NCBI GenBank assembly: GCA_965228895.1 | Contig: OZ245842.1 | Span: forward strand, 3,360,001-3,424,000 | Origin: Alphaproteobacteria bacterium | GTDB lineage: Bacteria; Pseudomonadota; Alphaproteobacteria; SP197 | Reading direction: 5' to 3' | DNA length: 64,000 bases | In this document: piece after piece, positions 45,087 to 46,560 of the stretch | Position numbering within the stretch: the first letter of the stretch is position 1 | Layout of the letters: every line of letters starts with the position of its first letter | Program-made: the position numbers and the translations under genes | Notes under the pieces: generated by a model | What the model was told of the DNA's origin: nothing | The model's input: only the letters and a program-made list of their open reading frames with translations | The model's database searches: none

Positions 45087-45191
45087 GGCCTTCCCCCTCT
45101 TCCATGAGCCGCGCCATCATAACGTGCCGGGGTGGGTACGCCGCAAGAAGGGGGTGACATCGGCCCCTGATCTCTGTATCTACCCTGCCCC

Positions 45192-45278
45192 ATGACCTCG
45201 ACAAGCCGCCATACCGCGTACTTTTGGTACTTCGGCTATCCGACGCCCCCGGCGCCGGCAGAGGATCGTTCGGCCTAA
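45192..45278 (+). CDS. aromatic-amino-acid-rich leader peptide (attenuator) of DAHP synthase
   Basis: MTSTSRHTAYFWYFGYPTPPAPAEDRSA*; 6 aromatic codons in 7 positions; followed by a terminator and then the DAHP synthase gene. Confidence 0.85.
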   Translation: MTSTSRHTAYFWYFGYPTPPAPAEDRSA

Positions 45279-45306
45279 GACCCAACCACCGCCGACCTCC
45301 CCGAAC

Positions 45307-45335
45307 CGCCGCCAGGGACCTTGGCGGCGTTTTTT
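45307..45335 (+). terminator. intrinsic (attenuator) terminator
   Basis: CGCCGCCAGG-GAC-CTTGGCGGCG followed by TTTTTT, 36 nt upstream of the aroG start. Confidence 0.85.
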
Positions 45336-45371
45336 ATGGCCGCCGGTCACCCAACACCCCGGAGCCACACG

Positions 45372-46436
45372 ATGAACCCCAAGAGCCAGTTGACCGACGA
45401 CCTTCGTATCGAGCGCATCGATACGCTGAGCCCGCCCGCCGAGGTGATCGACGAGGCGCCGTCCAACCCGGCCATTGCGCAGACTGTGGATGGCGCCCAC
45501 CAGGCGATCCACAAGATCCTGCACGGCGAGGACGACCGCCTGGTCGTCATCATCGGGCCGTGTTCGATCCACGATCCCAAAGCCGCGATGGAGTACGCCA
45601 ACCGCCTCGTCGCCGAACGCGAGCGCCATGCCGGCGACCTCGAAATCCTGATGCGCGTCTATTTCGAGAAACCGCGCACCACGGTCGGCTGGAAGGGGTT
45701 GATCAACGACCCCCGGCTCGACGACAGCTTTCACATCAACGACGGCCTGCGCCTGGCACGCCGCCTGCTGCTTGACATCAACGCGCTCGGCCTGCCGGCG
45801 GCCTGCGAGTTCCTGGACGTCATGACGCCGCAATACATCGCCGACCTCGTCGCCTGGGGCGCGATCGGCGCGCGCACCACCGAAAGCCAGGTGCACCGCG
45901 AGATGGCCTCCGGCCTCTCCTGTCCCGTCGGTTTCAAGAACGGCACCAACGGTGACGTGAAGATCGCCGCCGACGCCGTACAAGCCGCCTCCAACCCGCA
46001 TCATTTCCTGGCGATCACCAAGGAGGGCCGCGCCTCCATCGCGACGACCACCGGCAACGCCGATGCCCACATCGTGTTACGCGGCGGCGCGGCGCCGAAT
46101 TATGACGCCGCCGGGATTGAGTCTGCCGCCGCCCAGCTCGCCAAGGCGGGCCTCACCGAAGCCATCATGGTCGACGCCAGCCACGGCAACTCCGGCAAGG
46201 ATCACACCAAGCAGCCTGGCGTCATCGCCGATATCGCGGGCCAGCTCGCCGGCGGCGAACGGCGCATCATCGGCGTCATGATCGAAAGCCATCTCGTCGC
46301 CGGCCGCCAGGACATGGTGCCAGGCCAGCCGCTAACCTACGGCCAGTCGATCACCGATGCCTGCATGGATTGGGAGATGTCGGTCGCGGTGCTGGGTGAG
46401 CTTGCGGCCGGCGTGCGCGCGAGGCGCGGCGCATAA
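45372..46436 (+). CDS. aroG: 3-deoxy-7-phosphoheptulonate (DAHP) synthase, class I alpha
   Basis: TDDLRI, GPCSIHD, MRVYFEKPRTTVGWKGLINDP, GAIGARTTESQVHR, SHGNS, YGQSITDAC. Confidence 0.95.
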   Translation: MNPKSQLTDDLRIERIDTLSPPAEVIDEAPSNPAIAQTVDGAHQAIHKILHGEDDRLVVIIGPCSIHDPKAAMEYANRLVAERERHAGDLEILMRVYFEKPRTTVGWKGLINDPRLDDSFHINDGLRLARRLLLDINALGLPAACEFLDVMTPQYIADLVAWGAIGARTTESQVHREMASGLSCPVGFKNGTNGDVKIAADAVQAASNPHHFLAITKEGRASIATTTGNADAHIVLRGGAAPNYDAAGIESAAAQLAKAGLTEAIMVDASHGNSGKDHTKQPGVIADIAGQLAGGERRIIGVMIESHLVAGRQDMVPGQPLTYGQSITDACMDWEMSVAVLGELAAGVRARRGA

Positions 46437-46456
46437 CGAAAACGCTGAACGTCCTG

Positions 46457-46560
46457 CCTCTCCCCCACTGACGCGGGGGCGAGGGGGAAAGGTCGGCGAT
46501 GGTTCCCTTTTCCTGTTTCGGGAGAGGGAGGGGCCCGATACGAAGCGTTAGGAGGGTGAG
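46457..46560. repeat. degenerate CCCTCTCCC...GGGAGAGGG-type REP-like palindromes between convergent genes
   Basis: CCTCTCCCCC-ACTGACGC-GGGGGCGAGG and TCCCTTTTCC-TGTTTCG-GGAGAGGGA...GAGGGTGAG. Confidence 0.6.

Follow-up and report, generated by a model that had tools for sequence, protein, structure and literature searches.

The window analysed here, a stretch of 64,000 nucleotides, contains on its forward strand an open reading frame of 28 codons (45192–45278; translation MTSTSRHTAYFWYFGYPTPPAPAEDRSA), an intrinsic terminator and the aroG gene, in that order. The frame, predicted to be a leaderless leader peptide on the basis of its relatives and a ribosome-profiled orthologue (CCNA_03951), carries the run Tyr-Phe-Trp-Tyr-Phe-Gly-Tyr at 45219–45239, in which the aromatic class is kept among relatives while the residues exchange. 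It is followed at 45307–45335 by a hairpin recognised through hairpin search, folding and alignment (stem 45307–45329 with 10 pairs, 8 of them GC, −18.6 kcal/mol; T6 at 45330–45335), the one terminator found in this region of the window against a mean of 0.3 in shuffled sequences. A Shine-Dalgarno GGAG (45361–45364), with a similar purine tract in relatives, precedes the ATG at 45372 of a gene (45372–46436) whose 354-residue product is assigned by profile match to the class I (AroG/F/H-type) DAHP synthases (TIGR00034, E 4.8e-158), its best solved relative being a Phe-sensitive enzyme (E 3e-144). All the elements named in the first-pass annotation, that is, the uORF with YFWYFGY, the terminator with its T6, the ribosome-binding site and ATG of aroG, and the DAHP synthase, are present. 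In the whole 5.5-Mb genome, 375 of 45,245 short ATG-initiated ORFs precede a terminator-like hairpin, and the leader ORF is the only one among them with six aromatic residues in seven; four short ORFs genome-wide reach five in seven, with a terminator only at the leader ORF 45192–45278. This uniqueness among the 375 indicates that the combination of leader and terminator is not due to chance.

The gene after aroG lies on the opposite strand, so that aroG is probably monocistronic. Between aroG and this convergent hydrolase gene, GC-rich inverted repeats occupy 46455–46560; similar repeats occur at two other loci (L002 and L003), and they may represent a REP-like element or a bidirectional terminator. 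In other carriers, the downstream neighbours of aroG include a cobalamin riboswitch (L007:2633–2839, genome G033) and a 404-codon ORF on the same strand (L029), and the co-induction of CC_1396 with aroG in a cspC mutant (PMC4551563) suggests an aroG operon in some Caulobacter.

A sigma-70 consensus scan of the window called no promoter, and the leader promoter was found by comparison with relatives: a −35-like hexamer GTGACA lies at 45154–45159 (+), with a similar hexamer 35–38 nt ahead of the leader's start codon in 71 of the 83 leader loci among the matches listed, and a −10-like hexamer TATCTA at 45177–45182 (+), with TA at the same place in relatives. The position of TATCTA predicts a transcription start 0–3 nt before the leader ATG. 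At one leader locus, L025, the peptide has the same sequence as AHI88554.1, a 27-aa protein of C. crescentus NA1000 listed as uncharacterized. Its gene, CCNA_03951, is a new ORF of 84 nt derived from ribosome profiling (Schrader 2014, PMC4117421), annotated as 'hypothetical' without a function; it lies 95 nt upstream of CCNA_01463, which encodes the DAHP synthase, with the same spacing as in L025. The accessible part of that report does not discuss CCNA_03951 and has 0 occurrences of the word 'aromatic', and the ORF is absent from its strict leaderless sheet. A primary start site of NA1000 has been mapped at 1571956, with the ATG at 1571955, that is, 1 nt before CCNA_03951 (Zhou 2015, PMC4287350), and its RpoD motif is identical to the L025 upstream sequence and corresponds to the GTGACA of the window. 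Promoter geometry and the Caulobacter start site are in agreement with the earlier suggestion of a leaderless start, which is directly mapped in NA1000 and by extension probable in the window genome, whose one RNA run yields a single 151-nt contig reaching upstream of the leader promoter. The NA1000 promoter at 1571956 is also listed as cell-cycle regulated, with GANTC at −24 and a GcrA ChIP enrichment of 4.05 (PMC4287350); the spacer of the window promoter is without this GANTC site.

The published Caulobacter data also inform on expression. RNA levels of CCNA_03951 and CCNA_01463 were 240 vs 81 RPKM in PYE and 534 vs 82 in M2G, and the respective ribosome densities were 725 vs 63 and 924 vs 62 (PMC4117421). 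The RNA step-down from the leader to the enzyme gene, 2.9-fold and 6.5-fold, is compatible with premature termination. In the same data, expression of CCNA_01463 does not rise from rich PYE to minimal M2G, and M2G has the larger ratio of leader to gene; this flat level counts against a simple attenuation model, RPKM values for such a short RNA being noisy, and may be explained by a mild difference in supply together with a second enzyme.

Class I DAHP synthase itself is patchily distributed, being present in 7 of 41 relatives and in 12 of 401 genomes of the class, the window genome counted in both. The first-pass annotation had proposed to look for aromatic-rich uORFs and terminators upstream of orthologous aroG genes, and such conservation is clear: the leader with the same terminator was found in 6/6 close relatives, in 9/10 further class-wide loci (the contig of the tenth starts inside the terminator) and, in a named genome collection, in 67/80 loci examined as the best 80 of at least 557 confirmed aroG loci, two of the 67 duplicating earlier loci. 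These carriers are related and hence are not independent observations. Another of the best 80 had a partial leader beside masked bases, and the remaining 12 (11 betaproteobacterial and one unclassified) had no such leader within 330 nt. In betaproteobacterial loci that lack the leader (L081, L086–L089, L091 and L094–L097), another conserved element, GTCTACGG...ACGCGCGAAGCAACG, lies 150–230 nt before aroG. The carriers of the leader include Caulobacter, Phenylobacterium, the Rhizobium tropici group and one gammaproteobacterial bin, and a search of a phylum sample of 401 genomes with the RNA pattern gave six matches, five of them in one family of another class, which protein look-ups assigned to Stenotrophomonas and Pseudoxanthomonas, while the sixth was a chance match. 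ATG, reading frame, stop position and aromatic class of the leader are conserved over two classes of Pseudomonadota.

The least biased test of the association was a metagenome search with a pattern of the RNA core that contained neither the aromatic codons nor any aroG sequence. This pattern is strict, missing the window element itself, and retrieved at least 117 loci. Among the matches listed, 82 of 117 lay directly before aroG, and 80 of these 82 had at least three aromatic residues in the last seven codons in the frame of the window, the other two having an aromatic cluster in another frame; seven more had the cluster but too little downstream DNA, and the remaining 28 (25 with at least 200 nt downstream) showed neither cluster nor aroG. 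Viral contigs gave four matches to the RNA pattern, none with an aromatic cluster or aroG. A covariance model (R1) run on 151 genomes of the class returned six strong matches, all of them training loci, and ten weak ones (E 8e-4 or worse), of which the five inspected resembled plain terminators, so that nothing in these 151 genomes suggests that the element also stands before other genes.

Three helices that overlap one another are predicted for the leader RNA. A protector (1:2) hairpin at 45240–45258 (45240–45247 paired with 45251–45258, −9.4 kcal/mol) directly follows the aromatic codons. The 5' strand of the antiterminator (region 2, 45250–45274) would pair with its 3' strand (region 3, 45291–45314), which overlaps the 5' arm of the terminator (the 3:4 hairpin) from 45307; in constrained folds, the core CGGCG at 45250–45254 pairs with 45307–45311, and inner helices join 45256–45264 with 45296–45303 and 45270–45274 with 45291–45295. 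The alternative fold proposed in the first pass, between GTTCGG (45268–45273) and CCGAAC (45301–45306), is correct as a complementarity, although as a helix it has probability 0.0 in the computed ensemble; moreover, it stops short of the terminator, without overlap, and was rejected as the antiterminator in favour of the core at 45250–45254 with the terminator 5' arm. In the window, Pro-Pro stands at 45246–45251 where most relatives have Pro-Leu. The terminator 5' arm carries an extra CCG that matches this base change, and the register of the core helix shifts accordingly.

Comparative support differs among these helices. An alignment was made of 43 leaders, hand-chosen for diversity from the 79 distinct ones and used with structures derived from the same sequences. 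In it, the terminator has 93.8% of cells paired, with both-side changes at 3/9 pairs, and the protector hairpin 88.7%, with both-side changes at 4/7 pairs. The antiterminator core has 86.4% of cells paired, with four compensatory cells at two of seven pairs: in three Rhizobium sequences G-C becomes A-U, whereby one terminator pair becomes G-U, and in L008 U-A is replaced by C-G. Such covariation is thin, a control slid by +1 scoring higher (0.097 vs 0.086). For the inner helix, pairing within the own species beats pairing with other species modestly when overlap is removed (42/66, −10.4 vs −9.2 kcal/mol); an earlier count of 60/74 was rejected as inflated by overlapping segments. The fold of the whole region is only modestly better than that of shuffled sequences (z −1.76). 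After the aromatic cluster there is no synonymous spread, with GCG in 57/58 and CCG in 55/58 leaders, and in Rhizobium, L084, L141 and L178 the same RNA core encodes other peptides; frozen third positions together with these frame changes show that selection in this part of the leader acts on the RNA rather than on the peptide.

A ribosome covers about 12 nt beyond its A site, and stalls were modelled by masking 12 nt beyond the A site. In both non-Rhizobium groups, the terminator arm was sequestered at about 0.8 as long as the stall lay no further than the last aromatic codon, and this value dropped to 0.1–0.3 within two codons past it; Rhizobium has the same edge in a register of its own, where only the last few stall positions give read-through. 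The fold with the ribosome-covered region masked, suggested as a check in the first pass, thus sequesters the terminator arm as expected, but not in full-length RNA at equilibrium, where the terminator forms for every stall position (P at least 0.97), and read-through must therefore be kinetic. In the non-Rhizobium groups, the antiterminator also forms without a ribosome (0.68–0.79), and the shuffle control of the leader discriminates poorly (0.40–0.68 vs 0.80–0.99).

From these data, the aroG leader is best read as a leaderless, ribosome-stalling transcription attenuator, with a probability of about 0.88. A short uORF has clustered codons for end products of the pathway; it is translated in the C. 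crescentus orthologue, according to the accessible ribosome-profiling data, and transcription starts there 1 nt before the ATG, a leaderless arrangement that would extend to the window genome; an intrinsic terminator separates it from aroG; and, with moderate support, an antiterminator that excludes this terminator is left free by a ribosome on the control codons, under the assumed footprint. The ribosome-mediated attenuator of the first-pass annotation is supported in this respect. RNA polymerase would start at or just before the leader AUG, where the ribosome loads, as observed for the Caulobacter orthologue. When aromatic aminoacyl-tRNAs are plentiful, the ribosome would pass the cluster and cover the 5' strand of the antiterminator, allowing the terminator to form and leaving aroG mostly untranscribed, a state that may be reflected in the Caulobacter RNA step-down. 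A shortage of charged tRNA-Tyr or tRNA-Phe, and probably also of tRNA-Trp, would stall the ribosome at or before the last aromatic codon; during the stall, as folding and covariation suggest, 45250–45274 would pair with 45291–45314, the terminator 5' arm would be held and aroG transcribed. Very probably, then, this bacterium and many relatives, including Caulobacter, make extra DAHP synthase only when aromatic amino acids are short, the support for starvation-dependent read-through being indirect: the co-induction with tyrS in a cspC mutant speaks for it, and the flat level in M2G vs PYE against it.

Other explanations of the leader fit these observations less well. The terminator might act as a fixed damper, or release an sRNA or peptide with a role in trans, without the uORF gating aroG by supply; leader RNA and ribosome density high in both Caulobacter media with a flat aroG would agree with this, as would the trans roles published for the S. 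meliloti attenuator RNA (rnTrpL/peTrpL), but the strict link to aroG, the aromatic codons and the overlapping compensated helices would be left unexplained, and a role in trans could be additional rather than alternative, which makes this reading very unlikely. Nascent-peptide arrest is exemplified by TnaC and ErmCL, and an aromatic-proline peptide sensing a free amino acid or a drug in the exit tunnel, with no role for uncharged tRNA, is conceivable here, as (F/Y)W(Y/F)FxYPxPLA looks conserved as a peptide in many lineages and Tyr/Phe-Pro is near universal. The aromatic residues, however, exchange freely and range in number from 3 to 7, the same RNA core is combined with other peptides in Rhizobium, L084, L141 and L178, the Pro and Ala codons are frozen at their third positions, and a product-triggered stall would turn synthesis on when the product is abundant, the wrong logic for a biosynthetic gene; arrest is accordingly considered extremely unlikely. 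That the frame is a fortuitous ORF within a promoter region, or belongs to a riboswitch that reads by accident as aromatic codons, is next to negligible and largely refuted already by the conservation of ATG, frame, stop and aromatic class over two classes of Pseudomonadota, by the translation of the Caulobacter orthologue and by the lack of an Rfam match.

Within the attenuator reading, the amino acids that are sensed can be weighed in two ways. Phe and Tyr occur in all leaders, and Trp in 56 of 83 aroG-selected leaders and 59 of 80 distinct metagenome leaders (both among the matches listed) and in 56 of 74 dereplicated elements. That the attenuator counts all three, Phe, Tyr and Trp, is held tentatively, at somewhat under even odds; the conservation of TGG at one position in 50/58 non-Rhizobium leaders makes Trp sensing plausible, and in the model a stall at Trp favours the antiterminator just as much (0.67 in the window type and 0.80 in the Caulobacter type). 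A sensor effectively of Tyr and Phe, to which the single Trp codon adds little, is about as well placed, a shade short of an even chance. Trp is absent from 27/83 and 21/80 of the same two sets among the matches listed. A Tyr or Phe codon stands closest to the protector hairpin, and that for Trp lies about 15 nt upstream of the hairpin, so that with about 12 nt covered a ribosome stalled at Trp would not open it; TGG is able to pair in a 5' hairpin, and the Rhizobium type is modelled to give read-through at the last few stall positions only. The C. glutamicum analogue is reported to respond to Phe but not to Tyr, although its leader has a Tyr codon (PMC11802643, PMC4046766, PMC7356990). In a C. 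crescentus cspC mutant, aroG (10.7-fold) and tyrS (9.85-fold) are the top two of five raised genes, with no trp gene among the five (PMC4551563), and Caulobacter tyrS has its own leader with tandem Tyr codons, MIDAFVLARPYYRPLP, about 320 nt before the Pfam match (L250), in agreement with the co-induction of both genes. These cspC data suggest that a Tyr signal alone can open the aroG switch, and are equally explained by an RNA-chaperone effect on both leaders. At the codon before Trp (window 45222–45224), Phe is encoded by TTT in 49/58 leaders vs TTC in one, in a genome that prefers TTC over TTT by about 3:1; this usage perhaps derives from RNA pairing or sensitised decoding.

The window genome also has a class II DAHP synthase without an aromatic leader, as in 5/5 other carriers checked (6/6 with the window genome). 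No aromatic leader was found in it before tyrS, trpS or two chorismate-binding genes either, and TrpR has no match. A leader-free class II enzyme beside an attenuated class I enzyme makes the latter look like a demand-induced second enzyme, and class I aroG is probably the inducible one of the two. The notion of a single attenuator at the entry of the shikimate pathway accordingly stands as regards the attenuator and falls as regards the sole entry. A wider proposal is that a single leaderless uORF acts as an OR gate with three inputs, a shortage of charged tRNA-Phe, tRNA-Tyr or tRNA-Trp each sufficing to open transcription, within a mobile cassette of promoter, attenuator and class I gene spread across Alpha- and Gammaproteobacteria, as a single RNA device replacing the three-isozyme TyrR/TrpR design and with the codon order of each lineage tuning the input weights; it remains speculative, with not quite an even chance of being right.

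Further candidate attenuators were noticed outside the window. A second trpS-like gene of Rhizobium (L254) is preceded, about 184 nt ahead of its Pfam match, by a leader peptide in which Trp codons stand in tandem, MIDLPEPICRLWWRSF. In the window genome, a uORF ending in KTTTKT with a terminator (G000:C1:818430–818528, +) is a candidate Thr/Lys attenuator before a gene like aspartate-semialdehyde dehydrogenase (named from its N-terminus); an apparently leaderless uORF with five consecutive Thr codons and a terminator (G000:C1:3190944–3191021, +) precedes a truncated thrS-like start (named by reading); and a uORF with the Thr/Ile run TTIII and a terminator (G000:C1:3294538–3294633, +) precedes a gene. 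As for the aroG leader, its reading as an attenuator assigns a function to a mapped 'hypothetical' small ORF of the model bacterium C. crescentus, CCNA_03951, and to unannotated uORFs in Phenylobacterium, Rhizobium and Stenotrophomonas, and suggests how bacteria lacking TrpR control the entry of the shikimate pathway. It also raises the question of whether one attenuator can weigh three amino acids, with codon position setting the weights, and offers a model for leaderless initiation coupled to attenuation and a compact aromatic-amino-acid biosensor.

The family is real, widespread and apparently uncatalogued. Rfam gave only chance matches for the window at E up to 10, with no Trp_leader or Phe_leader, and nothing but an unrelated cobalamin riboswitch for eight loci; Pfam and NCBIfam each returned 0 families for 4/4 leaders, short peptides limiting the sensitivity. 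Literature searches, whose coverage largely leaves out subscription papers, found no description of it, and the accessible part of PMC1262725 shows no predicted analogue before DAHP synthase. The earlier statement that no description of such an attenuator in alphaproteobacteria was known therefore holds as far as these searches go, but its novelty was overstated, as aroR of C. glutamicum has been tested and an Acholeplasma counterpart predicted.

The order of elements, uORF with cognate codons, protector, antiterminator and terminator, is that described in the accessible sources for E. coli trpL, pheL-pheA and pheST, for S. meliloti trpL-trpE(G) and for the C. crescentus ilv leader. The thrL and ilv leaders respond to two amino acids each. 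The aroG leader differs from the classical attenuators in its target, the shared entry step of the shikimate pathway, in the three amino acids of one cluster and in its leaderless start. Attenuators have been predicted at class I DAHP synthase genes of other Pseudomonadota, namely Vibrio aroAI-alpha/tyrA (PMC1173090) and Shewanella aroF (PMC2659441); as far as the accessible text goes, these are predictions of structure only, in other lineages and with no aromatic leader described. Closer in form is Acholeplasma uORFC-13-1, a predicted uORF with a terminator before aroF (3-deoxy-7-phosphoheptulonate synthase), which differs in having a run of Phe only and an RBS, in its restriction to Acholeplasma and in being a prediction (PMC8632094). 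The nearest counterpart is the aroR-aroF attenuator of C. glutamicum, a tested system with a Phe-Tyr-Phe leader (PMC11802643, PMC4046766, PMC7356990), in which, as here, an aromatic-codon leader stands directly before a DAHP synthase gene and ribosome stalling controls transcription; it belongs to the Actinomycetota, lacks Trp and is reported to respond to Phe and not to Tyr, the likeness being one of description rather than of RNA alignment. In its mechanism the aroG leader is a textbook attenuator, with a tested precedent on the same enzyme. For that precedent, the primary study is reportedly that of Neshat et al. 2014.
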